From: Marsupella aquatica
Lineage: Eukaryota; Plantae; Marchantiophyta
Reading direction: 5' to 3'
Length of the DNA: 64,000 nucleotides
Assembly (NCBI GenBank): GCA_973895155.1
Contig: OZ316892.1
Location: 3,413,223-3,477,222 of the forward strand
Shown piece by piece: positions 24,259 through 64,000 of this stretch (its first letter is position 1; every line of letters starts with the position of its first letter). The notes under the pieces were generated by a model. It was given only the letters and a program-made list of their open reading frames with translations. It did not search any database and was not told the DNA's origin. Position numbers and translations under genes: made by a program.

Positions 24259-27200
24259 ATGGGGACGTTCAAGCTTGGGGCCCGCCCCAAGTATGAAGTG
24301 ACAAAGTATGATGGGCGCTCTGACTACTTTCTCTGGGAGAAGCAGGTGAAGGGAGTGCTCTATGTTTCAGGGATGAGCCAACTGCTGAGCCCTCGTGAAG
24401 ACAATGTTGATGGGAAACAATGGGACCGCATGCAGGAGCAAGGAGTTTGGTGTATTACACTCTATCTCATGTCTCCCATCATCAAGCAGTTGGGTGCACA
24501 TAAGGATTGCATGTCCTTGTTTGCGAAATTGCAGAGCAAGTATTACCATGTAAGGAGTTGTCAAACCGGCTCTACACTTTCTACAAACTTATGAATTTCA
24601 GGATGAAAAAAACCGATACAAAGTTGCAAGACCATGTGGATGCTTTCAACGACATGGTCATTGACTTCGAAAACCTTAGGGAGACTTTGAATGATGAGAC
24701 GAAGGCTCTATAGCTTCTCAGTTCATTGCCTCCATCTTACCAGTCCCTATCACCGGTGTTGTTACATCGTGATAGGGATACCATTTCATACAATGACGTG
24801 ATAAGTTCTCTGCTTAGTGATGATCTTCAACAAAAGATGCACATCATATCATACTTAGCCTTCATCATCTGGTGCTGCCCTCAATGTTAACCATGGGAGG
24901 AGTATGCAGCGATCAACTGGGGACCGTAAAAACCAATTTAGATCTAAATCCAAATCTAAGTCTAGGGGAAAATATATCTCCTCACAGGAGGCAGGTGATA
25001 TGTTGGAAGTGCAACCAGATCGGACACTTCAAGTGAGACTGTAAGGGAAAGACGACTGAATCTTCATCGGCAAATGTGGCTAGGGCTGATGGAGATGCTG
25101 ATTTACTCAATAATGAGTATATATTATGAAGCCAAGGGTATGCCCTATGCACATCATCTAGGAGAGCAAATGATGTATGGATTCTTGATTGTGCTTGCTC
25201 TTTTCATATTTGTTACATTTGTGAGTTTTTCAGTTCTTACTCTATTTCAAACGGTTCAGTCCTGATGGGAAACGATCACTCCTGTCAAATTGAGGGTATT
25301 GGGTCTATGAAGATTCAAATGTTTGATGGCGCTATGCGCACAGTATCTAGAGTCAGGTATGTACTTGGCATGCGTAAGAATCTGATTTCACTCGGTGTGT
25401 TGGATTCAAATGGTCATCAATGGAGCGTTATTGATGGTGATTTTCAAGTCAGGTCAGGAGAGATAGTGATTATGAAGGGAAGCAAAGAGAAGAATTTGTA
25501 TTTGTTGTAGGGCAATACTATATGTGGAGAAGCCACTGTAACCAAATCTCACGAGGAGATGACTCAACTGTGGCATTCACGGCTAGGCCACATGAGTAAG
25601 AAGGGTTTGGCTATCTTACGGAAGAATAGACTCATTTCTGATTTACAATCTTGTAAATTAGAGTTTTATGAGCATTGCATTCTTGGAAAGCAGCATTGTC
25701 GTGCTTTTGGTGTTGGAACTCATCGTTCCAAAGCGGTTCTTGAGTACATACATAGTGACATGTGGGGTCCATCTCTGACTCCCTCACACTTTGGAAAGTT
25801 GTATTATAGATTTATCATTTATAATTGATAATTACTCAAGATTTGTGTAGATTTATTTCATGATGCATAAGTCTGATGTCTTATCCATTTTTAAGAAGTA
25901 GAAGGCCCATGTGAAAAATTAGACTGGAAACACAGTCAAGTGTTTTGATAAAGGGTGAAGAGTCTGAGGTCACAGAACGGCGGGGAATACACTTCAGTAC
26001 GTGGAATTTGAAGAGTACTGTTCGGAATAGAAGATAACTCACCATCTCACCACAGTTTATACTCCGCACAAAATGGTGTTGTTGAGAGGCTCAATCGAAC
26101 ACTATTGGAGCAGTCACGGAGTATGTTGAGCCAATCAGGTTTACCACAAGAATTTTGGGCAGAAGCTGTCAATACTGCAGCTTATTTGGTACATCTTTCT
26201 CCTTCTAGTGCAATCAATTTCAAAACGCCGTTTGAGATGCGCTATAAGCGGCAAGCAGACTATCATGGCTTGGTAGTTTTTGGAAGTGATGCATATGCTC
26301 TCACACCTAAGCAAAATAGGACCAAATTGGATCCTACCTCCAAGAAATGTGTTTTTCTTGGGTACCAGAGTGGTGTGAAAGCCTATAGGCAATAGGATCC
26401 TATTGCCTATAAGCTGATTGTCAGTAGGGATGTTTCCTTCAATGAATCCAGACTATTGAAGGAGGGGGAGAATACTCACGTCTCTCGTATTGACAAAGGA
26501 AAATCTCATATCTCAAATCTCGTTGAGAGGGAGATTGGTCATAACATGACCGGAGATAAGGAGTTTCTCCAATTATAGATTTGGTTCCTGTGCCAGAGGA
26601 ACCAGAAGAGTTTGTTGATGTTGGTGAGTAGCAAGTGGATGCTGCTAAGCTTCAGATTGTACCAGCACACGCAGATCAACCGGAGTCATCGGCTAGAAGA
26701 ATATCTAGTCGCACTGTACGCGCTCCACCAAGGTATGGACAGTGGATTGATTCATCTCTGTTGCAAGAGGATAATTTTATTATTGATGGTCAATTACAAG
26801 CTTGAGGGGGGAAAAAAGGATCTCCAATTTCTCCACCAAAAGGATTCCAGTCTGTCCCAATTTACAAGGGGTGGACAAGGTGTTACACCAAATGGCTAGG
26901 ATTAGTTTGTTGAGATTGGATGGTGAGATCTTGCATGCCAAGTCTTTGGAAGTGTGTCCAGGCTTTTAGGAAGTCATCATCTTCTTGGAAGTGTGCACAA
27001 CAATTTTGGAAGTGTGTCCAACCTTTATGGAAGTGGTGTTCAACTAAATCTTTATGATCTTTGAGTCCTTTTTCTCTCCTTTTTGAGCTAATCCTTTTTG
27101 CGTCCTTTTACCCCCCTCAATCTTGCAATTGACCTAATGATGAGGGTGATGCGTTGATTTTGGAAGAAGGGGAACTTTCTTCATTTCATGAGGCAAGTGC

Positions 27201-34288: not shown

Positions 34289-34817
34289 GTGAATTTCAAA
34301 AGTATTTAAGCATCCAAAAAGATCTATCAGGGGCACTGTACAAGGTTCTGAAAATTTTTGAAGGCTTGTTATCCTGAAAGTTGACGAAAGCCTTCTTGTC
34401 AGTACGTTCAATTTGCTTCCACGTAAGTTTCATACGGAGAGCTTTCACTTTGGACGGATTTTTGCAATTATAGAGTAGCAAGGACTGCCGGATCTGACCA
34501 AACGTGGGGACGTGTGGATCTAAAGTAGGGACGAAAATACTGGCCGGGATATCGGAGGCCTGGAGCTAGTGCAACCAGAGCTAAGTGGGCCGCAGCACGA
34601 GGAAATAACCAGGGAAGGAACAAGAGAAGGAACCTCCGGTTCCTAAAATCTTCTAGGGAGGTGAGATCGGCTGGGAGCAAAAGCAAGAGAGATTGCAGCT
34701 GAACTTCAGAGCATCTAAAACCACTAAAGGAGGAGAAACTCTCAAAGGATATACTGCAGAACCTCTGCTTGAGTTTGGTGACATATTTGCAGCTGAAAGG
34801 TAGGCGCGCTCTAGAAA

Positions 34818-36131
34818 ATGGAGTTCAACTGGTATCAAGAGGAGATGCATAACTATTTAAGCCAAGGTTTGGGATTTGACGTGCGGCCAGAGCTCCACGA
34901 ACTAGTACAAACTCATGGGAGCATTGAGGTTCCCAATGTGCAACGTTTCCAAGCTGAAGGGCCAGATCGGGATACATACCAGTTGGACCAATCAAACATG
35001 ATGGATGTAGGCCCTCAAGCTCCAAGTTTTCCAACGGATCATTCCGAATCAGAGCTAAGAGATGGTTGCGGGCAACGACGTCCCAACAATCCAGCACCAG
35101 AATACCACGAATCAGAGATAGGGCAAACTCTCTCCAGCTCACCGGTGCCTGGACCTGATCATGTAGAACCTCCGGTGACATCCGCTGGAGCTGTATCTAG
35201 CCTTGACGCCATGACGGAAGGTTCAGCACCAGAATACCACAAATCGGAGATGGGGCAAACTCTCTCCAGCTCACCGATGGCTGGACCTGATCATGGAGAA
35301 CCTCCGGTGACATCCGCTGCAGCTGTATCTAGCTTTGAATACATGACGGAAGGTCCAGCACCAGAATACCACGAATCGGAGACGGGACAAACTGTCTCCA
35401 GCTCACCGATGGCTGGACCTGATCATGGAGAACCTCCGGTGACGTCTGCTGCAGCTGTATCTAGCTTTGAAGCCATGACGGAAGGTCAAGCATACGCTCT
35501 CGTCACTGAAGACATGACTCTGGAGGCCACTCTATTACTTAATAAAATGGTTGGGAAGGCCTTCTGTGAAACTATGAAGAAGGCAAGATCTCCGATTCTT
35601 CCAACATTACTGGGCAGTCTTGATTCAACTCTTCAGAAATTACAGGCGGATAATGTGCCAGTCACAATGGAAACATTCATAAAGGAGGCTTGCAAATGGG
35701 TTTACACATACATGAGAGGCCAGAACGACAGAAGAGTTGCTGTGCATCCTCAGCACATCAAGGACATTCCTAAAAACTGGCGGCTTCAGAACCCTGGCAG
35801 GTTTTACCCCTCCGACAAAGAATGTGAAGACATAGCACTAGACAACGGAATGGATAAGCGCCAGGTCTCGAGCCTTTTTGAAAATGAAAGGAAGAGAAAT
35901 CTGAAGGAGAATCCTGAGCTCAAAGGAAAACTGAAATCTCACTTTCAACCGCACATCACTAACGCTCTTACAGATTGGCAAGCTCAGAATCCAGGGCGTC
36001 CACAGCCAAATAAAGTCCAACTAAAACTTTTGATTGAGGAAACTGGATTGAACAGAATACAGTTAGTGGATTGGTTTAATAACCACAGAGTTGGAAGAAA
36101 TCGCTCCAAGAGAAGGAATATCCAAGTTTGA
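34818..36131 (+). CDS. Intronless 437-aa protein with two tandem divergent TALE-class homeodomains and a possible MEINOX/KNOX-like region
   Basis: HD-a (~35730-35906): NWRLQNPGRFYPSDKECEDIALDNGMDKRQVSSLFENERKR. HD-b (~35928-36110): DWQAQNPGRPQPNKVQLKLLIEETGLNRIQLVDWFNNHR. Both show TALE W...PYP-like loop spacing and a helix-3 (W/L)FxNxR motif. Confidence 0.85.
   Translation: MEFNWYQEEMHNYLSQGLGFDVRPELHELVQTHGSIEVPNVQRFQAEGPDRDTYQLDQSNMMDVGPQAPSFPTDHSESELRDGCGQRRPNNPAPEYHESEIGQTLSSSPVPGPDHVEPPVTSAGAVSSLDAMTEGSAPEYHKSEMGQTLSSSPMAGPDHGEPPVTSAAAVSSFEYMTEGPAPEYHESETGQTVSSSPMAGPDHGEPPVTSAAAVSSFEAMTEGQAYALVTEDMTLEATLLLNKMVGKAFCETMKKARSPILPTLLGSLDSTLQKLQADNVPVTMETFIKEACKWVYTYMRGQNDRRVAVHPQHIKDIPKNWRLQNPGRFYPSDKECEDIALDNGMDKRQVSSLFENERKRNLKENPELKGKLKSHFQPHITNALTDWQAQNPGRPQPNKVQLKLLIEETGLNRIQLVDWFNNHRVGRNRSKRRNIQV
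35091..35486 (+). repeat. In-frame 132-bp (44-aa) tandem repeat x3
   Basis: APEYHxSExGQTxSSSPxxGPDHxEPPVTSAxAVSSxxxMTEG at 35091, 35223 and 35355. Confidence 0.97.
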
Positions 36132-38680: not shown

Positions 38681-41600
38681 CAAAAACTAATATACGTCCG
38701 TATGTTCCTTCCTAATTCTCATCTCAAAAATTTAGCTCTGCCATTCGTTTTGAGTATGACAAATTTGGTACTATATATTAACGTTGCATATTTTGAAGCT
38801 ACTAATAGGGCAAATTATTATCTAGCATTGACTGAGCTAGACGCAGCCACCTCATTCAACATATGAAATTTTTAAAGCTGTTAGTAAAGATTAGAAATAT
38901 ATAGACCAGTTTTCCTGCGGGTATGAGACTAAGCTTGAATGAGGAGCTTTCCTATTGGTTATTAATTAATACGCTAGCTCTCAGAAATCAGATCGAATTG
39001 TGAGAAGATTCTGACTAGTGAGTAAGGTTCAAGCTTGGCTGCCTGACAGGATTGAGTCCAGCAGTATCCATGTATACTAGTTACCGTTTTTATGGGAAAT
39101 TTCAGAAAGTGAGATTTACTGCCAGAGACTGTAACAGTAGGCCAGAAACGAATTGATCATTTGTCAGTTCCATCCCCAACTCTTTGTACAGTCGATGGGG
39201 TATAGTGTAGAATAGATCGTTTGTCAGTGTCCATTCCCAACTCTTGTATCGTCATTTGCCAGTTTCCATTCTCAACTCTTTGTACCAGTAGATGTGGAAC
39301 TCTTGTGTCGTCATTTGTCAGTTTCCATTCTCAACTCTTTGTACCAGTAGATGTGGAATAGTGAATCTCAAAGTATTTAAGCATCCAGAAAGATCTATCA
39401 GGCCGGGGCACTGTACACTGTAGCGAAATTGTTGAAGGCTTGTTATCCTGCAAGTTGGCGGAAGCCTTCTTGTGAGTTCAATTCGCTTCCATATAAGTTT
39501 CATAGGGAGAGCTTTCACTTTGGACGGACTTTTGCGATTATAGAATAGCAAGGACTGCCGGATCTGACCGAAGGTGGGGACGTGGGGATTTAAAGAAGAA
39601 ACGAGGATATTGGCAGGGATATCGGAGGCCTGGAGCTAGTGCAACCAGATCGAAGTTGGGTGCAGTGTATACGTAGGTACTTGCAGACACGATCGAGGCA
39701 ATTACCAGGGAAGGAACAAGAGAAGGAACCTCCAGTTCCTAAAACCTTCTAGGGAGGTGAGATCAGCTGGGAGCAACAGGAAGAGAGATTGCAGCTGAAC
39801 TTCAGAGCATCTAAAATCACTAAAGGAGGAGAAACTCTCAAGGATATATAGACTGCGGAACCTCTGCTTGAGTTTGGTGACATATTTGCAGCTGAAAGGT
39901 AGGCTCTACAAAATGGAGTTCGACTGGTCTGAAGAGGAGATGGATCGATAAATATTTCAGCCAAGGTTCGGGACTTGAGGTGTTCCCAGAGCTCCACAAA
40001 CCACTACAAACTCATGGGAGCATTGAGGTTCCCAATGTGCACCGTTTCCAATCTGAAGGGCCAGATCGGGATACATACCATTTGGACCAATCAAAGATGG
40101 TGGATGTAGGGCCTCAAGGTCCAAGTTTTCCAACGGATCATTCCAAATCAGAGCTAAGAGATGGTTGCGGGCAACGACGTCCTAACAATCGAGGACCAGA
40201 ATACCACGAATCAGAGATGGGGAAAACTCTCTCCAGCTCACCGATGGCTGGACCTGATCATGGAGAACCTCCGGTGACATCCGCTAGCTGCAGCTGTATC
40301 TAGCTTTTAAGACATGACGGAAGGTCAAGTATACGCTCTCATCACTGAAGACATGATTATGGAGACCACTCTATTAGTGTCCAAAATGGTTCGAAATGTC
40401 TTATGTGAAAGTATGGAGAAGGCAAGATCTCCGATTCTTCCACCATTACTGAGCAGTCTTGATTCAACTCTTCAGAAATTACAGGCTGATAATGTTCCAG
40501 TCACAATGGAAACATATATAAAGGAGGCTTGCAAATGGGTTTACACATACATGAGAGGCCAGAACGACAGAAGAGTTGCTGTGCATCCTCAGCACATCAA
40601 GGACATTCCTAAAAACTGGCGGCTTCAGAACCCTGGCAGCTTTTACCCCTCCGACAAAGAATGTGAAGACATAGCACTAGACAACGGAATGGAGAAGCGC
40701 CAGGTCTTGAGCCTTTTTGAAAATGAAAGGAAGAGGAATCTGACGGAGAATCCTGAGCACAAAGGAAAACTGAAATCTCACTTTCAACCGCACATCACTA
40801 ACGCTCTTACAGATTGGCAAGCTCAGAATCCAGGGCGTCCACAACCAAATAAAGACCAACTAAAACTTTTGATTGTGGAAACTGGATTGAACAGAATACA
40901 GTTAGTGGATTGGTTTAATAACCACAGAGTTGGAAGAAATCGCTCCAAGAGTAGGAATATCCAAGTTTGAGACCTTTTAGATTTGATCGAGAAAGTAAGT
41001 GGACACTCCTTGTTCCGGAGAATTGAATGTTATGCAAGGAATTTAACCTGGCTTGCTTTGGCTCGATCAATTAATTAGCTAAACTAGTTTTTTCCATCCC
41101 CAATTGATTATTAATTGAAGTACTGTAAGTTTGGTGTGCAGTATGGTAGGCAGGAGGTCCAGCATCTACTTGCCATAATTCGAGATATATGAGTCTCAAG
41201 TAGGCAGAGTCAAACTAGATTAGAATTCGTGGGAGAAACCCGCCGCAACTACTGCACGTACGTACTTGGAGACTATCATGGAGAGAAGAGGGGACAAAAT
41301 TTGTTCTATAGTCATGTTTTAATGCGCTAGCTTTCCTGTCCTACAGTCCCAACCTCCAAATTCAAAATTGATTCTATACTTTTGGGAAATCAAACTTGGT
41401 AAGACGCCCTACAAAAATCTGTCTAAACAAGGGGTTTGCAAACGAGAAATCACGTACTTTCTTTGTTTCCGGGATAATGTGTACTAATGGAAATTTGTTT
41501 GGGAATCTTCTCCAGGAGCATCGTCAAAATAAGACCAAATAATGAAGGACTATAAGTATTTTGTTATACTGGGTAGGGATATATATGGCCCTTAGTCCAC

Positions 41601-47160: not shown

Positions 47161-48766
47161 AAGCAGCTTGATTGACAAGGCATGCATATTACGGATGTTC
47201 TAATCGTGTGTTGCATGTTAATTGGTTCTATTTTGTTAGATGGTTATATTTTGTTAGATTGCGTATTGAATGAGTTGAGTTAGCTCAACAGAAGAAACGC
47301 AATCTTTTGAGAATTTTGTATGATCCTCGATGTCGGCCTTGTTCTCAGCTGGTGTTCCTTTCTCCCGTCCAGGCTACGATTGGACATTGATCATACTATG
47401 AATATTTTCAATAGTCTGCAAAGCTAATTACAACCGCGAAGGGCAACTTCATAATCGTCTGTAAATTTAGGTCTTCCTCAAGTGGAAGGGTTAGCGGCTC
47501 ATTACAACCTGCGCTTACTTTGCATATTAAGAGTACGTCTTCAAACCAACGTACACTTGCACCTATTTTCTGCGTCGATCCCCATTTGAAGCCCTCTCGC
47601 AAGCCCTTCCTTTCACTTGCCATGTTGTGCTCGTGTGGTCAATATAACATAGTCGTCGTTCTCAATTGCCGATCAGCTCACTTCTCTCTGTCACAAATCA
47701 AGCTATAATTCTGTTATAATGAACTGCAATGGAACATTGAAATAATAACTCTGTTATAATGAACTCCAAATTTCACCAAAAGTAATAATGAGCTCCATGA
47801 GCTGTGTGCTACACTAGCTTGGACTCTCGACCAACTCTTGTCACAAAACCTGCACGAATCTGTGCAATATCTGTTGAACAGCATGAAAGGTCTTTTCTAC
47901 TATTCATGTCCTCACCAGGGGTCAGAGTTGGCTGATACTAGCACAGAGGCTTAATTTGAAAGCACCGATGTTTAAATCTAACTACTCTCAGAGCCGTAGC
48001 AGCACCAAAGAATGAGAATTTTAGGGAGTTAAGCACAAAATATGAATGGAGAACTTATAGGATAATAGGAGACCCTGGGTTAAATCAACACCGCGTTAAT
48101 GCGCTCCAAGTTTAGCGGCACCCCGTACGCTGCCCGTCACGAAATCCAATGCCGCCTGCCCGTTCCCCGACGCGGCCTAGGTTTATGTTCTACCATTTCT
48201 CCTTCGACTGCCTAAACTGCGTTTCCGTCCGTCGTCCATCCGTTTTGAAATCGGGCGGGAGCGCGAACCGACTCCCCGACCCTGCCAACGCTACCCTCCC
48301 CTGCCCCGTCTCGACAGTCGACTGCTGTCGAACCCTGCGATCCCACTCAAGGGTCCACTCAAGCGCGTTTCCGGACCGCCTGCACACGAGCTCACGGTAG
48401 AATGATGGCAGATTGATTTTCATTCTGAAGTGTCAGGATTGTGATGCCACTACTTTCAACGTGATCGTCATTGCAAGCAAAGGGTGCGTGTGATTCTGCC
48501 ATTGCCACCTGATATCATGTTATGCCGCTGTTCATTTCCACCGGTTGGCTTTCCCCCTAAATGTTTCTGGTATTTGTCAGTTCACATGCTCTTTGTCTTT
48601 GCGTTCGTGGTACTACTTTGCAAACACGTCGCAGTTCAATTTCAATTGCCCTTGCAATGCAAATGCACCCGATCATGAGGTGTGAGTTTTGTACCAGAAA
48701 TATTCGTCTTGTAGTTTTTGTTCTACCAACGCCCAAGATAATTGTTGGGAGCCTTTGCGTAATCCA

Positions 48767-51700
48767 ATGAGTCATGAAACATGGGAGTACGTACAGATTC
48801 CACCGGCTGGGAAATTTTCGTCGCTACAGATTGTTTGGAGCCCATATGACCAAGCTCTCATTCCATGGAACCGTCTCACTGATTTCAAAGATGGCGAAGG
48901 CAGAAAGGATCCAAAATTTGAGAGCTCATTTCATATTAGAACCTCAAGAAAATCTAATTCAAATAACACTGATTGGATAGAATATGCCATCTTCTGGTGT
49001 TCCTATGGCCCACAAGAGGAAGACATGTGTAGTGTAGCTATTCCTCCACTGCCTGGAACAAAACCAACATCAGGAGTACTTGGGAGTAGACCTAGGTTAC
49101 GGAAGAATGCATTCAACAACCATGCCAAGCGAGGATGTCAGTGTCATTTCATTGCGAAGAGGATGAAAGCCAACCCTGATGCTGTTCAGCTCTCCTACAT
49201 AAACAGGCAAGGATGCATTTTGTCTAATTATGCATACTCCAAGTCCGTTGCAGGGTCCACGTTGACATGAATTTATGTGCTGCAGTTTAGGTTTTGCCTA
49301 ATTTTGTGCACATAGTTGTTACTGTCTACCATCTTATTTTGTATGCAATGGTTTATGTTTTGTCTGTGTTCCAATTGCAAAAAGCATTGTAATCAAAGAG
49401 GGGACATTGTGCATGGCGATTGGGATCCACAATTGGGGCCGCCCTCTTGGGGACCAAAATGCAGCATTGCTCCATGGTTGACCAAAGAGATCCGGAAGCA
49501 CCTTGAGGACTTATTGAGGGCAGGATGGTCCGTCCTTGATATTTATGACCTCCATTGTCAATCGCAGTTTGAAAGAGGTGGTCATGATCGTGGACACAAT
49601 ACCACTGATCCTGGTGTGTCACTAACTTTTGATGGGAGAGACGACCTGGTTTCTAAACAAGATCTTCGAAACCTCAAACGAAAAGTTGACAAGGAGACCT
49701 GACTATGGTCTGATAATGACCAGGCATCGATGCGCAAATGGATGGGGATGTATCCTGAGAGAGTGCTTCTTTCACAGGAGTACATGGCGAGCCCACCAGA
49801 GCAGGAATTCATACTTTCATTGCAGTCACCTTGGCAAAGAGCGCAGATGATCACCCTATCTCATGGATCAGTTTTGGCGTTAGATAGTACCTTTGCAACT
49901 AATAAATATGGGGTATGTAATTAGCATTTCATCTCCTCAAGATCTCCATTTCATTGCATTCCATGTCTTCTAGTTCATGTTTTGCCATCTTCATATGTTT
50001 TCTTGTGTCTGTTCCTTCAATTATGGTTCATGTTCTGCCCATCACACCTATTTGACCATGCGACTTCATTTTGTATCTTTGTCGAAGTTCATGTTCTGCC
50101 ATCTTCATATGTTTTGTTGTGTCTATCCCTTCTGTTATAGTTCATGTTCTGCTCTTCATATATTTTGTTTCTAGTATTATAGTTCATGTTCTGCCCATGT
50201 GACCTATTTCATTTGATGTCTTGTAGTTCATGTTCTGCCATGTCACTACACAATGTACTTGAGTTCATTATTTGTCTTCTAGTTCATGTTCTGCCTTTCT
50301 AACCCCAGTGCGGTTGCAGTTCCCTTTCTTCACGCTCGTTGCTTTTGATCAACACCAGATGGGATTACCCATAGCATGGTGCATCTAGCAGTCTGAATCA
50401 GCTGAGCACATCACTACTTTTTTGAAGGCAATAAAGGATACAGCCTTGGCGCACAAACCTGATTGGAGTCCTAGCTGCTTCATTATTGACTGTGCTCAGG
50501 CTGAAGTCAGCGCAATATTGAAAGTTGTCTTTCCCGATATCCCCATTTATTTTTGCAGTTGGCATGTTCGACGGTATGTTCTTCCACATGTCAAACATTT
50601 TGTGTTGCAAGTAATGTTACCACATTTGTAACTCGTCCTATGAAGTTCATGTTTTGCCCAACCCACTTACGTGTTTGTGTATACAGAGCTTGGAAAGAGA
50701 ATTTGATCAAGACTGTACCAAATAGAACCAAGCTTCTGGATATGAATGATGATCTGGGGGATCTCATCTATGCCAATACTGAGGAAGACATGCAAGTTAA
50801 GTGGCGATCCTTCCAAGCAAAGTACCACATGGAACAACGATTCCTAGCTTATTTTGAAGACACTTGGATGCACAGAACAGGTTCATGTTTTGTCCGACCT
50901 CCTACTCATTTTTCCTTGCGATGAGTCAAGCATATTTCTTGGCAGTTTTCTCATGATTACACCTAATTATTGTTTTTATGCATTTGTGGAATCACAGCAA
51001 AGTGGATGAGGGCTGTTCGAGACATGCCTCGAGCCAACCAGAATACAAATGGTGCAATTGAAGGTTGGCATTTAACATTGAAGAAGATGATCAAGAGGAA
51101 TATTGGGTCCATTGGAGCTCTGCGTCTAGGTAGGGTTGTCACTTCTTTGTTCCAGGTTATGCTTCCTTTCTTTTGGTACCAGCTTCGGTGCAAAGCAAGG
51201 GGGAGAGTCATCAATTGCAAAAAGGAAGAGGTTGTCCTCAATAGCCTCCACAAGGCCATGCATGCCATGAAATTCCACAAAGTCTATTTTCCTGATCGGA
51301 GCCTGCCCAACCAGGCAATAGTAAGAAGTGCCAAGCCTGATGGGAAGGAGCACATTGTTCAAAATATATTCTCGAACTTTCCTTCCTGTGATTGTAAATG
51401 GGCGGATGAGGGAAATATGTGTAAACATCAGATTAAGGCTCTCTTATTTAGAGGCTTCGATGGAGGTGTTCTAGTACAACAATTAGGTTCCAGGTTTGGT
51501 ACTCAGATGGGTGGCATTGACCATTTGGAACTGCTTCAACACGAAGAAACAGAGCCGAAAGGAGGACAACCAACCGGAGTCCATGAGGACACAGACATCA
51601 ACCAACAACCTGAACAGGTTCATGTTCTGCAAATCTCTCTGGCTTTAAGTTTACAGAGTTTATTCAAGTTTATGTTCTACACATGTTCATGTTGGCGGCG

Positions 51701-52438
51701 TTTGTTGCGGTTTATGTTCTACACATGTTCATGTTGACGGCGTTTGTTGAGGTAACTTATGTTCTACACATGTTCACGTTGACGGCGTAAGTTTAAGTTT
51801 ATGTTCTGCACCTTTGTTTAATATGTTCTGCCAATGTTTGTTAGCAACATCTTACTGTAATTGTCTGTGATTCAGATTTGACAACACTCTACTGTAGTTG
51901 TTCAGAATAGAGAGCCAAATATGAGGGCGGACTTAATCCACATTTTTATCAGCAATTGGCTATTGTTGAAGGAGATGACTACCTCACAGAACAAGCATTC
52001 TTGGCATCACAAGTCACACTCACCAAACTCAAAGCTCAACAACAAATGAAAGTGCTTTCAGGGAAGGCCAATATAGGTCCTACAAATGCATTTGTAAGGC
52101 CTATAGGGCTGACATCTAAGCGTCGCTTGGGGGTTATAGATATTTACCATGGGGGCAAGAGAGGGTAGCGAACTCGCGCACCATCTATACAATGTGATGA
52201 ACGCCCGGTGCCATGTGCACTGCCTTCAAAGCGTAAAGTAACTAGGGAATCTAACAGACAGCATCTATGTAGGATAGGACTACAATATCAGGAAGGCAAG
52301 CGGCGGTGAAGGACTGCTAATTCATCCTTGCCAGTAGTTCCAAATCGTGTTATTCATCTTGGAGGGGGTGGTAGAGATATTGACATGAATGTCAATATCG
52401 ATCTGAATGTTGTACCTCTCTTGGAAAATGATGAATAA
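48767..52438 (+). pseudogene. Spliced MULE-type DDE transposase with a SWIM finger and several premature stops
   Basis: Exons ~48767-49206, 49381-49912, 50320-50573, 50687-50880, 50998-51617 and 51876-52438. Motifs: WCSYGP, KRGCQCHF...H, ALDSTFATNKYG (D1), CFIIDCAQAE (D2), FCSWHVRRAW (CxxH), NTNGAIEGWH (E) and CDCKWADEGNMCKH (SWIM). Stops at ~49700, ~50386, ~52166 and ~52307; one acceptor mutated AG>AA (49380). Confidence 0.9.
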
Positions 52439-53678: not shown

Positions 53679-54143
53679 CTACGCCACAAAACATAAACCA
53701 TTACACATACGGCTAGGACATATGCAAAACATGAATCAAGTGTTGAGCAGATTGCACTAGAAGAAAATAGGGCCCTTTATGACCAATCACCCAATGACAG
53801 AGATGAATAAATGACCAAAATTTCTAATGACACAAAAAGAATGACAGGGGAATGACTGTCCACAATGACCAATAGACTGAAATGACAAAATGTTAACTTT
53901 TGCGTCATTTTGTATAATGTCTGTAATGACTAATGCGACCAAAATGACCCAATTTTCCTAAATGGTCAATTTAGACACGTGTCTTAAATGACGCAAATAA
54001 TAACAACAATGATAAATCAATGTTTAGCAACATTATAGTCACTCTAGACAATGATAGAAATGACCAAAAATCTATTTAGGTCATTTTGGACAACGGTGAT
54101 AAATGACAAAAAATGTATTACCGTCATTTTAACCAACGGTGTT

Positions 54144-54662
54144 AAATGACAAAATATAGGGTCAATCTGAAAATGAGAATATATCAGTGTTTACAACAAC
54201 ATATTGTCATTATGGACTCCTCGCATAAATGACTAACTCTAGGGTCAATTTTGAAATTAGGACATATCAGTGTTTACAAGAATATACCGTCATTATGGAC
54301 TTCTCTCATAAATGACTAACTCTAGGGTCAATCTTGAAATTAGGACATATCAGTGTTTACAAGAATATACCGTCATTATGGACTTCTCTCATAAATGACT
54401 AACTCTAGGGTCAATCTTGAAATTAGGACATATCAGTGTTTACAAGAACATACTGTCATTATGGACTTCTCTCATAAATGACTAATTCCAGAGTCATTCT
54501 TGAAATTAGGATATATCGGTGTTTACAACAACATACTGTCATTATGGACTTGTCGCATAAATGACTAAATATAGGGTCAATCTAAAAATTACGATATTCA
54601 ATGTTTACAATAACATACAGTCATTATGGACTTATTGCATAAATGACTATTTATAGAGTCAT
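54144..54662. repeat. 83-bp tandem repeat x ~6 inside the CACTA
   Basis: tagggtcaat-type unit starts at 54157, 54240, 54323, 54406, 54489 and 54572. Confidence 0.93.
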
Positions 54663-54751
54663 TAAAGAACCCAAGAGATATGAAAATTAAAATGCTCAAT
54701 AGTCATTCCAGACACCGGTCATAATTGTAGAGTCATTGATATGGTTGATAA

Positions 54752-56950
54752 CCCTTCCACTAAGTGCGGGACACAATACTCATCATTGTCCTCCCACTAG
54801 TTGCGGCATTAGCAATTTGAACACATGTCTTGCATTTACTTTAGGCATGATGCACCTAGCTTTGGGGAAATCACTCCCAGGTCTAACACCTTTGGAGTGA
54901 TTTTCCAGAACTGTCACCATATATAGATGCGTGCATACTATCGTATCCAAAGGCAAATGAAACTTTTTTGTCTCTCCAAGAAGTAGGGCAATACCAATGG
55001 AAGGTTGTCATCCTTTGTTGTAATTGTGTCATGTTTGTGCCTTTGTTTGGATGGCGGATATTCTATTTTGCAAATGAATAGTGACGGGGCAATGAAGGAT
55101 GTAGTGTAATCTTTATTGGGTCATTTTTAGACAAATTTGTGTCATAATGCCAATGACTACAAGTAGAGTCATTAAACTGTCATATGGTATGTCATATGAG
55201 TCAAGTGACGAGACTTGTGGTCATTTGTGTGGTCCCTCATGCAGTCATTAAACACAAGCACAAATGACCAGTTTGGGGCTAGGGGCTTGAGGTGGGCCCT
55301 AGAGTGCCATGGGGCCCCACATAGAGGTGAGAACCCCTCCATTGGGTGCGGGACACTATACTCATCATTGTCCAACCACTAGTTGCGACATAAACACTTT
55401 GGACACATGTTTTTGCGTTTACTTGACCTCGGCATGATGCACCTTTGGGGAAATCACTCCCAAGTCGTACGACTTTGGAGTGATTTGCCAAAAGTGCAAC
55501 CATGGATGTATACCATCCCATCCAAAGGCAAATAAAAGTTGTTTTTGGGTTCTCCAAGAGGTAGTGATGCACCAATGGAATGGGCAGGGGAGTCGTGCTT
55601 CCTGGTATGGTGTGGGTGCGGGTTTAGAGAAGAGGAATATTCAGACCTTCCAAGGAATCTAAAGCGGGCTCTCTTTGGAGGTACTATGGCCCCCATTGGG
55701 TCATTTTTGTGCAAAGTTGTGTCATAAGTTTAGGGACTACAAATAGGGTCATTGAAATTGTCATATAGGATGTCATATAAGTCAAATGACTGGACTTGTT
55801 GTCATTTGAAGGGTCCCTAGTGCAGTCATTGAAGACAAGCCTAATGACCAATGTGGGGCTAAGGGCTGGAGGTCGGCGCTAGAGTGCCATGTAGCCCCAC
55901 ATAGAGCTTGCAACCCCTCCACTATGTGCCAAATACTATATTTATGATTATTCCAACCACTAGTTGCATCATTAGCACTTTGGTCTCATTTCTGTGTTTA
56001 CTTAAGGTATGATACAATCTTGGGGAAATCACTCCCAAGTCATACGACTTTGGAGTAATTTGCCAAAAGTGTCACCATTGATGCATACCATCCTATCCAA
56101 AGGGAAATGAAGCCATTTTTTGTTTCTGCACAAAGTAGCGCAACACCAATGGAAGACTATCATCCTTCCATGTAATTGTGTCATGTTTGTGCCTTTGTTT
56201 GGATGGGGAATATTCTATTTTGCAAATGAATAGTGACGGGGCAATGAAGGATGTAGTGTAATCTTTATTGGGTCATTTTTAGACAAATTTGTGTCATAAT
56301 GCCAATGACTACAAGTAGAGTCATTAATACTGTCATATGGTATGTCATATAAGTCAAGTGACTAGACTTGTGGTCATTTGTGTGGTCCCCCATGCAGTCA
56401 TTAACAGAAGCACAAATGACCAATTTGGGGCTAGGGGCTGAAGGTGGGCCCTAGAGTGCCATGTGGCCCCACATAGAGGTGAGAAACTCTCCACTAGGTG
56501 CGGGACACTATACTCATCATTGTCCAACCACTAGTTGCGACATAAACACTTTGGACACATGTTTTTGCATTTACTTAATGCATGATGCACCCTTGGAGAA
56601 ATCACTCCCAAGTCATACGACTTTGGAGTGATTTGCCAAAAGTGTCACCATGGATGCATACCACCATATCCAAACGCAAATGGAGCCATTTTTTTGTCTC
56701 TCCAAGAAGTAGCGCAACACCAATGGAAGGTTGTCATCTTGTGATGTAATTGTGTCATGTTTGTGCCGGTATTTGGATGGGGAATACTCCATTTTGCATA
56801 TGAATAGTGTCGGGGCATTGTGAGTAGGTGTTGTAATCTTCATTGGGTCATTTTGGAGGAATAGTGTGTCATTAATGCCAAAGACTGCAGTAAGGGTCAT
56901 TTTGGTAGTCATATTGGAGGTCATTTGGAGCAATTGACTGCATATGTGGT
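54752..56950. repeat. ~580-bp tandem repeat x ~3.8 inside the CACTA
   Basis: ccact..gtgcgggacactatactcatcattgtccaaccactagttgc recurs at ~54757, ~55339, ~55919 and ~56491. Confidence 0.9.
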
Positions 56951-57568
56951 CATTAATGAAAACACCTCAAATTAGGGTAATCTTGGTTGTCATACTAGAA
57001 GTCAGAAGTACCAAATGACTGGAAATGTGGTCTTTACAAAGGCTATTGGGGGGTTCTCTTTGGAGGTACAAGGGAGTTCATTGGGTCATTTGTGAATTAA
57101 ATGGTGCTTCAATCTGAGGACTAAACATGGGGTCACTCACGCTGTCAAATTGGAAGCCATTAATGTTTGCATATTGGAGGTCATATAGTCATGGGAAGGC
57201 TCACTTGTTAATGCTTTGGTGTAATACTCTCAAAAACTCTTAGACAACATAGCCTCATATGTAGTGGTCATGTAGCATGTAAGGGGCCCGGGAAGTGGGC
57301 CCTAGACGAGGGTGCTGGCAAGGGCATGTACAAAAGTACACTAATGTAATCCACAACACCCTCACCTCCCATGAAGGATTAATTTGTTTAAATGGTGGTC
57401 AGGTTATGGGTTTAGGGTCAATGTGATTTTGAGCCATAACTCTAGAGCACCAAGTTAGAAAACCAAGGTTTTCCCTTGGTCCAAAAGGACCTTTTATATC
57501 GCGGGCATGATTTTTTATATATAACATTGGTCCTTAACATTCTTGTTGGCACCTACACAAACAGCCAT

Positions 57569-57760: not shown

Positions 57761-60700
57761 AGACATATGAGAGATTGTCATGTCAGAACCTAAATCATGA
57801 CCCACGTACAATATCCACCATCCCCATCTGGAGAAATACCTTACTTTTACGGGGTTTAGGCGTCCAACATTAGGTTTTTCCTCCTCAAGTGTTCTCGCGT
57901 ACCAACAGGAGCCCTTTTTCCTGAAAAAACATCGACGGAGAGGGCATGCTCGATGTGCTCTTTTCTTGGCATGCCTTGTGTGCACATTGCAAGGGCTTAG
58001 GATTGCGCAACTTTGTGCATTGCCTCCACCAAGCTTTGACACTCTTCCAAACACATTTGCCCCGGGAGCATAGGTTGGAGTTGCGGGAGGAGAGGAGCTA
58101 CGACACTCTTCCGAGCACATTTGCCCCGGGAGCACAGGGTGGAGTTGCAAGAGGGGAGGAGCTGCAACACAGTTCTTCCGCGCACAGGTTGGAGTTGCCC
58201 CAGGAGCACAAGTTGGAGTTGCGGGAGGGGAGGAGTTGCATGAGGTTGGAGGTGCGGAAGGGAAGAGCTGCGGAAGGGAAGAGCCGGACACAATCAGAAA
58301 GAGTTGAGCGACAAGCTGCGGGTCACGAGCTGCTAGTGAGGAGCTACAATCGGCAACAAGCTGCGCAAGGTGGATGCAGAAGGCATTTGCGCGCTGGGGC
58401 CCCGATCATCATAGAAGGCGATTGCTATGGAAGCTCGTGGAGGCAGTGAAAGCAGGGAGGAAATCATTCTTGCTGCGGAAGGTCGACGATAGCTTCTTGA
58501 AGAGGTTGTGGAGTTTGCGGAAGGGAGCCGGTTGTTTGTTTGGTCTCAACATTCATTTCTTTAAGTGGGTGCGAGCTGCTTGCGGAAGGGGAGAGGTGAC
58601 CTGATTGCGGACGGGGAGAAGGCAAGCTGCTTGCGGAAGGGGAGAGGTCGAGCAGCTGCTTGCAAAAGGGGAGAGGGCGACTCATTGCGGAAGCTGAGAG
58701 TGCAAGCTACTTGCAGAAGGCAACAGAGCACAAGCTGCTACCTGCAAGTTGAGGCCTGCTAGCTTCCGCCTCAAAGGTATGACCTTATTCCCATTGGCGC
58801 CCATGCTGTGATTTGCCTGGTTGCTCTCTGCTCTCCACTTCCGGCTCCACCCCAGCCTGGGACCTGCAATGTGCTGTGTTGGGACCTGTGTTGCTGTGTG
58901 CCAGAGCTCTTTGCTTATGTTTTTTCTCTATCTATCCCTCTCCATTCGCTGTACATGTTCTCTGATCTTCAATTCTATTGCCATTTGCTACATGTTCTTT
59001 GAGTTTGCTGAGTTTTGTTGTCCACCTTCTCGCCCTCTGTAGCCTTTTGCATCACAAGTGCCTGCATTTCCTTCCCTGTCCCATGCTAGCTCCACTGCGA
59101 CCTTCCATTGCTATCTATGCTGATTCCTTCCACTGCTACAAAATTCTGCTTTGCAATGGCATCGCAATGCTCATATGTCCCAGTAAAATTTGGGTAGACA
59201 TAAGTATTAGGCGCGAAGTCTTCTCTCTCTGCCTGCCCAATCTGAATCAAGTGCCCGAGTTCTGACCGAGTTGTCCTCTGTCTGTCTGCTGTTGATTTCT
59301 GATTGCTACTTGTCGGATTTGTCTGCTATTTTCAGTTCAGTTTGTTGTCTTGTTGTCGTCTGGCAATTATTGCCAATTATTCTGACTGCGTGAAAGGCTG
59401 TTCTATTTAGTGTTGCCTAATTGAACATAAAAATATGCTATTAAGTTGATTGAGTTAGGCAAATCAGGATCCCGTACCCTTGTGTTCAAAATTCTATATC
59501 TGGCAGTGTTTGCTGTGTTTGTTGTGCTCAAACAAACAAACATTCTATTGGCAGTGTCAACCTAGAAAGATAACCTGATGTATCGCCAACCTTTTCAGTG
59601 TGCTGCCAAAGTCCCTGTAGATGCCACTCCTTCTCTGTTTTGAATGAGTAAACTCCTTTCCTCCATATTGAAATGTCATCCTGGACCTAAGCTACGAGGA
59701 ACTGCGAGGTGACTCGTGACAATCTTTGTGGTGCAAGGTGAGCTTGATCTCTTATTATTACAATGTAGTCCTTAGTTTTCCATTGTATGATATTTTCCTT
59801 AGTCTGTCAGTGTTCCTCAATGAATTGGTTTCCTTACTCTTCTTTTGACATCCCTCTGTATCATAGCCCTTTTCTTTTCTCTTTTTCTTACTGAAGAGAA
59901 GTGCAGGCATGTATGGTGAATCCTCACTGGATTCCAGCAGCGACTCTGTAGAATTCTGTCGCCAACAAGTTTCAGAGTTTTGTGTGTGGTTTGCCAACTG
60001 CTGTGCCACCTGAGAGAATTCCTCAGTGGCTTTGTACAAGCCTTGCTATTCAACTATGGTACTTTACAGCTAACTGTCTGACGTTCACACAACATCCATA
60101 CACAGCAATGAATACAACTCCATGAATACAGCCACATGATTTCCTTTGGTCTGCAAATTGGACGAAACTAAACTAAAATCAGCTTGGTCAATTTTAAATT
60201 CTTCGTAAGGGTCTCTAATAGCAGCCTGGTATAGTCATCTGTGCACGAAGATAGAGTACGGTGTAGCTTTTGAAAAAGTGGGTGGACCAGCAGCTTGTTG
60301 AGAGTAAAGCAACTTATGGTTCTGTAACAGATGTGTGCAGCAGCTTAAGATGTAGAAGGCACGCAATAAAACTTGATTTTTACAGATTTAAAAAAGGGCA
60401 GGGTGAGTGAGCACTGCATGTTGAACTCACAGGTCCAAATCTTGATTTGATTTTGCTGCTAAAATTCGTATCTCTTGCCTGAGTCCCAGTTTGCTGGAGT
60501 TTTGTTGCTCTCTGTGCTTTGTTGTGTTTGCTCTGTCCATTTTAAAACTTGAGAGCCAAATGAATGCTTTGCTGAAACTCAAGTGCTATTTGTTCTGTGT
60601 TGCCCTTACAGATTTTAAAAAGGCAGGGTGAGTTCGCACTGCTGTACAGCAAACGAAGGCATACAGGTTGCAATATTTGTGATTGCTTCCAATCATAGGC

Positions 60701-60882
60701 CAAGGTTATTTGCCCTGCTCAGTCCTAAATGCTTTGCCATGATCTATAAAGCATTGGTTTGTGCTGCACCCTTGTGGTTACATGTCATATTTTATGTTGC
60801 ACCCTCATTCTTTTGTGTCATGCTGCACCCTGTTATTCCTTCTTGTTTCACAATCTGATGTAGGGTCTGAGTGTGCAGGACC

Positions 60883-61542
60883 ATGGCTCGCAATAAGCAG
60901 AAGGCCATGAATCGTTGCAGAGGTGAATCCTCTCAAGCACCTCAATTGTCCTTATATTCAGACATTGAGATTAACCAGAATAGTCCACATGTATGTGCGA
61001 TTTGTGATGAGGGAGGGGATCTCATTGTTTGTGATGGGCCTTGCCACTGACATTTCCATAAGAATGTTTCCTGTCCTTTGGGTCAGCAATGGCTATGCCC
61101 AACTATATCCCTAGCTGATGGCCATGTTGGAGAATGGCTTTGTGTTGATTGCAAGAATGAGGAACATTCTTGCTTTAAGTGCCATGTGTCTGGAAAAATT
61201 GGTGAAGAGGTAAGAAAATGTCCAGACCCTCTCTGTGCCCGGTTTTACTGTCGGCAGTGTTTGGTTCCTGGCACAACATCATGTGGACTCCATATTTGTC
61301 TTACTTGTGGACAGGGGCCCAATGATGGGGCTAATGGCTTTTTGGTTCAGTGCATGAGGTGTCCTAAGGCATGGCACAAGGACTGCCTGCTGTTTATCCA
61401 GCAGAGGGGATTTGCCCATGATCGAACAATTTGGGATCACTCAGCGCATGGGCAGCCCAAGAAGGGGATGTTTTACTGTCCTGACCATGACATTGACCCT
61501 ACACTAGGCACTCCTGCTAGGAGCCACATATCTTGGATTTGA
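60883..61542 (+). pseudogene. EDM2-like composite PHD-finger protein (219 codons, one in-frame TGA at 61048), inside the CACTA
   Basis: The ATG at 60883 is in frame with the 154-aa track ORF: VCAICDEGGDLIVCDGPCH*HFH...WLCVDCKNEEHSCFKC...KCPDPLCARFYCRQC...CGLHICLTC...VQCMRCPKAWHKDCL...IWD...FYCPDHDIDPTLGTPARSHISWI. The Cys/His spacing and the C-terminal YCxxHxIDxxLxTPxRxH match my recollection of the plant EDM2 PHD region. Confidence 0.82.
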
Positions 61543-62142: not shown

Positions 62143-64000
62143 ATGGCACAATTGCCACAGAATACGTTAGGTGTGGGTAGAACTCCAAAGTTGCCGCTCT
62201 TCCATCCAGCTAGAGTACAACATCGTGATGATGCTTTGTGGGTTCGAGAACAGAAGGCCTGCCACAAGAGTGGGGACCATAAGATGTACTGCCCTTGTGT
62301 GAACTGCAAAGGGAATTATAGGACTAATCGAAATACTGCTAGACTGCACCTTATTAAACATGGTCGGTACCCTGCATGTCGAGTGTGGGTGGGAGAGGGA
62401 CAGGACTCTTCTGATGAAGAGTGGGGTGCTGACTACATGTCACAACATGGCCCAGAGGCACCCTGAGGCACCCTGAGGCACCCTGAGGCAACCTGTGCAC
62501 AACAACCAACTGTAGATGTTGAAGAACATTTATTTGTAGACGTTCCAGAGTATCCAACTGTGGATGTTCCAGAGTATCCAACTGTGGATGTTGAAGAACA
62601 TCCAACTATAGATGTTGAAGAACATATCAGGGCTCTACTAGAAGAAACGTTGCTGAGAACCAGTGAAGAATCCCCTGAACATGAACTAGATGATCAGGAC
62701 CGTTTTGACTTGGATTTTGTACTTGGGGATGATGAGAGTGAAGGAGGTGCCCATCCTGTAAACCCCCTTGAAACCTCTGAAACTCCTGTGGAGACTGATC
62801 CTGCACAGTTATCTTTAGATGCAGCAATGCAACCTTTGTTCCCAGGCAGCAAAATAGATGTTGTGTCATTCATGTTGCTTCTGCTGAACATCTGTCATGG
62901 CCATGGATTCTCAAACAAAGGAGTGAATGCATTGTTGTCTTTGATGGGGGAGCATGGTATGCCTGCAGAGCATAATCTGCCCAAGAACTTATATGCTGCA
63001 AAGCAGCTATTGAGAAAGCTTGGCTTGGATTATGAGAGAATCCCTATCTGTGAGAAAGGTTGCATGCTCTTTAGGGGTGAGAATGCCAAGTTAGAAAACT
63101 GTTCAGTGTGTCAGCAGCCCAAGATGAAGAGAGTGGGGAATTCATTACAGGCAAGGAAGGTGGTGCGGTATTTCCCTATAATTCCCAGGTTGAAGAGATT
63201 GTATGCCACTGCTGGTACATCTAAACTCATGACTTGGCATCATGAGAATAGAAGCACAGACAACATGGTTTGGCACGCAGCAGATTCGAAGGCTTGGAAG
63301 CATGTGGATACAAATATTGATAGGAAATTTGCAGCTGAACCAAGGAATGTGCGATTTGGGTTGGCACTTGATGGGGTGAATCCCTTTGGGAATAATTCCA
63401 CAGCTTGGTCTACCTGGCCAATACTGTTGTTGAATTACAATTTACCTCCTTGGCTTACCACCAAGAAGTTCTTTGTCATGCTAGCTATGCTGATTCCAGG
63501 ACCTGGTTCAGTAACAGAAGAACAGTTGGACATAATATTGGGCCCATTCTATGAGGAGCTGGAGCTGTTGTGGAAGAAAGGAGTGCCTTGCTTTGACAAA
63601 TTGCCACGCCCAGGATTGTCTCAACACTTCAACCTTAGGGCTGTGCTATTGTGGACAATCAATGATTACCCTGCATATGGTTTAATATCTGGACAACAAC
63701 ACTCTGGATACAAAGGATGTGTCATCTGTGGGCCAAAATGTGTGGCACGTGGTTCTAAGCACTTGCAGAAATTAGAGTACAGTGGCCACCGTCGATGGTT
63801 AGCAGCAAGGCATCTTTTTCGTAGACCAGACAGTGCACAATACTTTGATGGTGCAATTGAGAGTCGACCTGCACCGTGTAGAATGACAAGCTCTGATAGA
63901 AAGAAGTGGGGAGACGAGACAACAAAATATTTGAAGAAGGGAGGAACCAAGGTTGAGGATGAGAAATGCCCCATAAAGGTGCATGGAGTGAAGAGGGCTA
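62143..64000 (+). CDS. CACTA TnpD/Tnp2 transposase (Transposase_21 family), runs off the window; one in-frame TGA at 62464
   Basis: N-terminal YCPCVNCK...HLIKHG (transposase-associated domain), then in the same frame LGLDYERIPICEKGCMLF, RYFPIIPRLKRLY, HAADSKAWKHVD, EPRNVRFGLALDGVNPF, STWPILLLNYNLPPW and LWTINDYPAYG. Confidence 0.95.

Follow-up and report, generated by a model that had tools for sequence, protein, structure and literature searches.

Structure of the CACTA element

The window, i.e. the whole 64-kb stretch of DNA that was analyzed, ends within a CACTA transposon in which a stand-alone gene encoding an EDM2-type PHD-finger protein lies beside the transposase gene. The features distinguished within this element are as follows.

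53755..53767, + strand: CACTA left terminal inverted repeat, CACTAGAAGAAAA (sequence, depth step and flank contig end)
53768..57200, no strand: subterminal repeat region with GTCAT/ATGAC motifs, 83-bp and ~575-bp tandem units and palindromes (motif density)
58032..58707, + strand: GC-rich short-repeat region, putative promoter or first exon of the element (GC 0.546 at 58-59 kb; repeat families D15 and D18)
60588..60878, + strand: splice-like sites of a putative spliced 5′ leader (pattern scan)
60883..61542, + strand: stand-alone EDM2-type PHD gene of 219 codons, broken in this copy only (ORF, Pfam and public runs)
60886..60912, + strand: H3-tail-like leader, residues 2-10
60994..61152, + strand: finger 1 (C38-C90), with an EDM2-type insert after H59, His at -2 and an invariant Asp51
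61048..61050, + strand: premature TGA (codon 56), found in this copy alone; all seven runs have CGA
61171..61293, + strand: finger 2 (C97-H137), with His changed to Cys at 123 and ~21 residues fewer than in EDM2
61297..61539, + strand: finger 3 (C139-H202), with an EDM2-type C-terminal TPxxxH tail
62143..64000, + strand: TnpD transposase, continuing past the window end (Pfam)

Seven public runs from five studies contain this stretch, and all seven were aligned to the window; one of them may derive from the window's own source. The left end of the element is formed by CACTAGAAGAAAA at 53755, which starts with CACTA and is the sole such match within the 64-kb window; the right end lies past 64000. 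Aligned depth rises at the bin of the left end in 4/4 runs (in run X1 from 92 to 2488), and the alignment of the X1 flank contig ends at 53754. Bare CACTA motifs were unusable as a signal, since the window contains 118 of them versus 117 by chance. The terminal repeat is followed by a 3.4-kb subterminal repeat region of the CACTA/EnSpm type, where the density of GTCAT/ATGAC motifs is 22.9 per kb, versus 2.5-2.7 elsewhere. The arrays of this region (53768-57200) are nested and consist of 83-bp units and of ~575-bp units, each with a 50-bp palindrome. Depletion of CHG is confined to the same region (o/e 0.43 versus ~1.0-1.2 inside the element).

For the GC-rich region at 58032..58707 we infer a role as promoter or first exon. 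Splice-like sites were found 5′ of the PHD ATG (an acceptor at 60611, a donor near 60627 and an AG at 60877-60878), and a duplicate of this unit is located near 60400. The first-pass annotation, made from the sequence of the window alone, had described the gene as intronless; this is true of the frame itself, while the splice-like sites lie upstream of its ATG. Depth is lower across 57.4-60.3 kb and two runs carry a different sequence just 5′ of 60844; therefore, subfamilies differ in their 5′ region. A nested piece may be present within 57.4-60.3 kb.

The PHD ORF is located 7.1 kb downstream of the left end. As originally described, it is a 219-codon frame with its own ATG, situated inside the CACTA terminus and on the same strand as TnpD, the start of which (62143) lies 600 bp 3′ of the PHD stop codon. 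The transposase was recognized by its Pfam matches (Transpos_assoc PF13963 and Transposase_21 PF02992, E 3.5e-65) and contains an in-frame TGA (62464-62466), which falls within a threefold repeated 10-bp unit.

Elsewhere in the window there are two tandem, seemingly intronless copies of a two-homeodomain gene (34815-36131 and 39896-40970, + strand; Homeobox_KN, E 1.3e-10, two stretches), the second of which is split across two frames. A short + strand frame at 24178-24594 resembles a retrotransposon gag remnant by eye and has no Pfam match at E 0.01. A MULE-like remnant with a weak SWIM finger occupies 48686-52168 (+ strand), and 32-bp units are repeated in tandem at 52.5-53.2 kb. Immediately downstream comes the CACTA end, and the flank is itself repeated in the public runs.

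The PHD ORF and its premature stop codon

The PHD ORF extends from an ATG in good context to a TGA four residues beyond the last conserved His, and is interrupted by a single internal TGA at codon 56. The stop directly after the domain, pointed out previously, is present, but it is weaker evidence than it seemed, as several liverwort host paralogues end 6-7 residues after the same His.

At 61048 the entire aligned depth in 7/7 runs has C instead of T (the support in X7 being one contig at depth 4), and the column of codon 56 is occupied by Arg in 98% of 121 host rows of the alignment and in 15/15 other family rows, which bears out the proposed origin of this TGA from CGA. Because the element is CpG-depleted (o/e 0.19-0.27), the private CGA>TGA change fits methyl-C decay. 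The TGA had been taken for the only lesion; this holds within the PHD ORF, but the copy bears the second TGA in TnpD. With stops in both ORFs and CpG-type decay, the window copy is a dead insertion.

Two Pfam models score above cut-off in the ORF, PHD_NSD (PF22908, E 1.4e-7) and PHDvar_NSD (PF23004, E 2.3e-7), and the match to PHD-1st_NSD (PF23011) is below cut-off. The 219-aa protein matches PHD models only: Pfam detected neither the N-terminal and methyltransferase-like domains of EDM2, nor a SET or PWWP domain, nor a DNA-binding or transposase-binding domain. Of the Cys/His columns that are conserved in 85% or more of host rows, 26/26 have Cys or His in the window protein. The fold predicted from the single sequence has a pLDDT of 36.6, and that from 10 sequences reaches 63, with residues 1-50 below 50, and is too poor to judge the finger-1 pocket.

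Sibling copies in public runs

In X1 a single contig (60780-61983) has a depth of 701 and nine differences, and the TnpD contigs have depths of 841 and 858. The contigs of X6 tile the ORF, spacer and TnpD at depths of 233, 239, 245, 277 and 298. The corresponding depths in X4 are 3652 (ORF) and 3324 (spacer), and in X5 this tiling has depths of 17-64, 22 and 28. The weakest contigs of the same runs have depths of 9, ~29 and 3.5-6. These values suggest tens to more than 100 copies of the element, with depth not to be equated with copy number.

By tiling, the depths of ORF, spacer and TnpD match in organisms A, B and C; no contig bridging the ORF and TnpD is present among the contigs of the runs. 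In three organisms, the PHD gene belongs to the regular content of a multi-copy CACTA family. TnpD depth is far above PHD depth in X5 and X7, and the linkage of the gene to CACTA is seen in the subfamily of this copy only. The possibility, envisaged in the first-pass annotation, that the ORF occurs in a single copy is at odds with its multi-copy presence in the public runs.

A family of stand-alone PHD proteins

The predicted protein belongs to a family of 15 intact stand-alone proteins (211-245 aa, 13 clusters) that share 38-82% identity with the window ORF; in the collections searched, only single-exon members could be found. About a dozen further members are truncated or frameshifted, and broken members beside intact ones are as expected of a mobile gene. 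Family members rank above every host protein. The best host identity is 35.5%, a ceiling that applies to the host proteins found, the source genome's own EDM2 being outside the comparison, and the best host matches are paralogues from Marchantia, Riccia and Calypogeia (33-35%).

Look-ups of family members led to assemblies from Logan, JGI or ENA only, with no informative name and no annotated-genome record for any of them. A search for longer forms yielded host EDM2-like proteins only (8/1708 candidates). Scanning of metagenome contigs confirmed one of 52 candidate stretches, L001, whose flanks are unlike the window and which, at 1495 bp, is too short for a transposase. Related loci were found in 0/117 candidates from viral contigs and 0/16 from prokaryote genomes. 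EDM2 paralogues that lack the methyltransferase-like domain occur in liverworts and moss (P0005-P0009, P0042 and P0051 among the set), and short PHD-only EDM2 paralogues in Marchantia (P0025, 280 aa) and Triticeae (P0026 cluster).

Selection acting on the PHD gene

Within the variant list, of which 40 of 98 rows were examined, at least 12 changes fall in the ORF. Seven of the 12 listed changes come from major subfamilies and five from one low-depth contig; eight are synonymous, three non-synonymous and one is at the stop codon. Synonymous changes account for 8 of the 11 listed non-stop changes, versus 21% synonymous sites (p 0.0003), and for 5 of the 6 listed at high depth (p 0.002). All listed indel rows (9/9) are outside the ORF, and the 600-bp spacer accounts for ~4-5 events (p 0.02-0.05). 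Between the window ORF and L001 (212 codons) the proteins are 44% identical, with pS 0.83 (saturated) and pN 0.38; identity is 37% at third positions and 6/22 at four-fold sites. The PHD gene is under purifying selection and is kept intact, and it very probably has a selected accessory function.

The first-pass annotation had argued for selection rather than recent passive capture, and had named neutral evolution and near-identity to a host gene fragment as observations that would speak against it. The listed changes are mainly synonymous, the listed indels are outside the ORF, the gene is multi-copy, and identity to any host protein found does not exceed 35.5%, all of which agrees with that view.

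Origin of the PHD module

Across 16 family rows, 24/24 zinc-ligand positions are kept, each at 94-100%. Family modules span 176-182 aa from the first Cys to the last His and host ones a median of 205, which makes the former ~25 residues shorter (113 host rows); the earlier impression of retained ligands and shortened linkers agrees with these figures. Family-specific residues are Gln32, His36, Arg181 and His186, and His123 is changed to Cys.

NSD-type PHD arrays had been mentioned as the alternative source of the module. NSD1/2/3 resemble the family in that Pfam NSD-like PHD models match it. The best solved relatives are NSD3 (E 4.7e-10) and NSD2 (E 2.6e-13 with the profile), Foldseek gave a probability of 1.0 to NSD PHD-C5HCH tandems with weak E-values, and an Atlas search pointed to Streptophyta NSD-like PHD clusters (0.84-0.86, a lead only); no EDM2 chain was among the matches of the PDB sequence searches. 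However, NSD2 and NSD3 lack the 10-residue finger-1 insert, and their match ends at profile position 165-169, so that the last 45-50 positions are missing, whereas EDM2-like proteins match the profile to position 213-215. The finger-1 insert and the C-terminal TPxxxH tail are present in the family and absent from NSD alignments, the window protein does not have the NSD-type H-x2-C spacing in the first matched finger, and, unlike NSD proteins, the family protein has no SET or PWWP domain. Because the insert after H59 and the C-terminal tail are shared with EDM2, an EDM2-type origin, as preferred in the first-pass annotation, is favoured and an NSD origin is disfavoured by these alignments; the ligand pattern is likewise common to the family and EDM2. 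The comparison indicates that the gene descends from the EDM2 PHD module, minus the N-terminal and methyltransferase-like domains.

In addition to its reduced size, the absence of these domains and the His-to-Cys change at 123, the family differs from EDM2 in that its gene is transposon-borne and encodes an H3-like leader in place of an acidic patch. The acidic stretch before finger 1, a trait of EDM2, is absent from the family: the median charge upstream of finger 1 is +1, versus -11 in hosts. Asp is found at -3 before finger 1 in 73/101 host proteins, and the family has His at -2. This residue, His36, occupies the alignment column of an Asp that lies two positions ahead of the first Cys in AIRE PHD1, and Asp51 that of the CDG Asp in the same finger; in AIRE these residues bind H3K4 and H3R2, respectively. 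The H3R2 contact may thus be kept and the H3K4 pocket altered. EDM2 reads H3K9me2, according to the available parts of three reports (PMC7472560, PMC9910501, PMC3632883). Because the acidic patch is lost and His stands at -2, this property is not simply transferable to the family. The earlier suggestion that the element's protein reads what EDM2 reads is not supported in that form, given the neutral-to-basic stretch that replaces the acidic one and the His at -2.

The family is monophyletic and has a long stem in both trees (support 99 and 100/99). In the LG+G4 tree (81 rows, with 66 of 121 host rows omitted) it joins the liverwort methyltransferase-less paralogues (SH-aLRT 99), and in the mixture-model tree (50 rows) it is not joined to them. 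None of five placements was rejected by AU tests, i.e. with liverwort PHD-only (p 0.355), moss PHD-only (p 0.214), liverwort EDM2 (p 0.18), fern EDM2 (p 0.075) or seed-plant EDM2 (p 0.072) sequences. Because all five pass, we claim no donor lineage. The phylogeny against host EDM2 proposed in the first-pass annotation recovered a single family clade and left it five EDM2-like positions. In host EDM2 genes the PHD module is probably split over several exons; if so, the copy went through an RNA step or lost its introns.

The H3-tail-like leader

Residues 2-10 of the window protein are identical to residues 1-9 of histone H3 at 5/9 positions, and the closest relative, P0001, reaches 7/9 directly behind its Met (H3 order as given in a table within PMC11172440). 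This leader had been missed in the first-pass annotation. The anchor motif [AST]-R-x-K is present in 19/25 leaders and missing from 6/25. Position 7 is Ala or Ser in 17 of the 19 anchored motifs, and Lys or Arg occupies position 8 in 13 and position 9 in 14 of them. Ala or Ser at position 7 counts in favour of H3 likeness, because a plain nuclear signal would not need it. Between the motif and finger 1 there are 14 to 51 residues, depending on the protein.

Over the 25 leaders, the H3 1-9 order scores 16.6, versus 9.96 ± 1.12 for permuted orders, and 0/4000 permutations scored as high; with each of three subclades alone, 2, 3 and 2 of 2000 permutations did so. In a control with host N-termini, 4/300 permutations were as high, at a much lower score of 4.2. 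The order of the leader residues matches H3 1-9 beyond composition, in a post hoc comparison, as the likeness was noticed on the same sequences as those tested. A nuclear signal could explain the basic residues of the leader, though not their order.

Taken individually, 15/25 leaders beat their own shuffles at p<0.05 and 10/25 do not. Of the 19 anchored motifs, 9 do not begin immediately after a Met, and so no free N-terminus is expected in these. The K9-equivalent is lost in the window copy's own subfamily. A search of PDB sequences with the 23-residue leader (E up to 10) gave no match, to a histone or otherwise.

Proposed role and alternative explanations

We propose that the element carries a selected EDM2-type module with an H3-like leader that would likely act as a chromatin-tethered histone decoy against silencing; judged on sequence, this reading has about an even chance of being right. 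Transcription starting in the GC-rich region around 58 kb, followed by splicing, would give the mRNA of a small nuclear protein. Once its initiator Met is removed, this protein would display the leader A-R-x-K-x-x-A-K/R-K/R like a free H3 tail, on which the host enzymes that write H3K4/K9 marks could act and to which the corresponding readers could bind; alternatively, the leader would bind to finger 1 of the same protein and serve as a switch. With the PHD module anchoring the protein to chromatin or to partners of EDM2, silencing enzymes would be diverted from the element, and TnpD would be transcribed. Such a broad decoy would be unlike the transposon anti-silencers described so far, because those are family-specific, as stated in the available text of PMC6719617. 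We suggest more tentatively, and with some doubt, that an old CACTA lineage domesticated an EDM2 reader together with an H3 mimic, in a virus-style histone mimicry directed at the H3K4/K9 machinery.

The protein could instead be an accessory reader without mimicry, its leader serving as a nuclear localization signal and its PHD module reading heterochromatin in the manner of EDM2 and recruiting or blocking ASI1-AIPP1-EDM2 in favour of full-length TnpD transcripts. The EDM2-type module with all ligands, the alignment of the invariant Asp51 to the CDG Asp of AIRE PHD1, and the position of the ORF between the putative promoter and TnpD, where processing choice matters, are consistent with such a reader, as is the promotion by the AAE complex of distal polyadenylation through intragenic heterochromatin (available text of PMC7472560). 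The acidic patch before finger 1 is lost, though, His stands in place of the -2 residue, and the H3 order fits the leader better than any of 4000 rearrangements of its letters, so we consider this role rather unlikely. An adaptor of integration or of the transpososome, i.e. a PHD protein that attaches to TnpD or to the ends of the element and directs insertion to a particular type of chromatin, with the leader as an auto-inhibitory switch, would account for the one-to-one depth with TnpD and the fixed position beside it. Chromatin readers guide insertion in other elements, as exemplified by the chromodomains of chromoviruses and the PHD of RAG2. Pfam, however, finds no DNA-binding or transposase-binding domain in the protein, and other CACTA families transpose without a PHD gene, as indicated by TnpD depth greatly exceeding PHD depth in X5 and X7; this function is improbable.

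Selection might act on a host family of PHD-only genes, one member of which was recently captured by the CACTA lineage. PHD-only or methyltransferase-less EDM2 paralogues do exist (Marchantia P0025 and the Triticeae P0026 cluster), but none of the members searched for has an annotated-genome record, truncation or frameshift is common in the family, changes among high-depth element copies are mostly synonymous and the listed indels avoid the ORF, which makes a host family very improbable. Capture itself is well known, as described in part of PMC13317346, and the window copy is broken, as would befit a passive, neutrally decaying Pack-CACTA fragment. That explanation is almost certainly wrong: the best host identity is 35.5%, synonymous sites are saturated at 44% protein identity with L001, start, end and ligands are conserved over 13 clusters, and the stop is private to the window copy. 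With no near-identical source among the host proteins compared and no neutral decay, passive capture is contradicted.

Relation to known systems

Precedents for domesticated host modules are the ULP1 proteases captured by MULE and CACTA elements, and the chromodomains of chromoviruses. Pack-CACTA elements likewise contain host-derived coding sequence inside CACTA ends (available text of PMC13317346); the present element differs from them in having its own TnpD and in carrying a gene that is old, whole, selected and far from the host sequences found. Like TnpA (Spm/CACTA), VANC (VANDAL) and mir820 (rice CACTA), the PHD gene specifies an accessory product beside a transposase with a proposed anti-silencing role (PMC6719617 and 10.64898/2026.08.24.746577, both in part). 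TnpA and VANC are transposase-derived, sequence-specific DNA binders and mir820 is a microRNA, whereas the PHD protein combines a zinc-finger module of host origin with a histone-like leader, and Pfam detected no DNA-binding domain in it. Viral histone mimics resemble the leader in being short motifs that copy modified histone sites (part of PMC11738798); they are described for viruses, in contrast to a DNA transposon in which the leader is fused to a reader-type module.

In the full-text literature searched, with subscription journals and Repbase outside its scope, neither a CACTA-borne PHD gene nor a transposon histone mimic was found. The words PHD and EDM2 occur 0 times in the available portion of PMC13547354. 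A survey of 962 Spm proteins (10.64898/2026.08.24.746577) reports, in its accessible text, other accessory domains that are not named; "PHD" is absent from that main text, while figures and supplements may bear on novelty. The protein family is unnamed. The H3-like leader and the loss of the acidic patch before finger 1 add to the first-pass annotation, and the leader makes the gene more unusual than it first seemed.

The predicted protein is a single-exon product of ~220 residues and is thus readily testable, and the family compared with EDM2 offers a natural variant set for mapping the ligands of the unsolved EDM2 module. The known counter-defences of plant transposons are DNA-binding proteins or small RNAs. 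If our reading is true, a selected host chromatin-reader module with a histone-like leader in an autonomous transposon would represent another kind of strategy, with histone marks as its target. TnpA, the accessory anti-silencing factor of Spm, is said to be restricted to flowering plants (main text of 10.64898/2026.08.24.746577); outside this group, the PHD protein could take its place.
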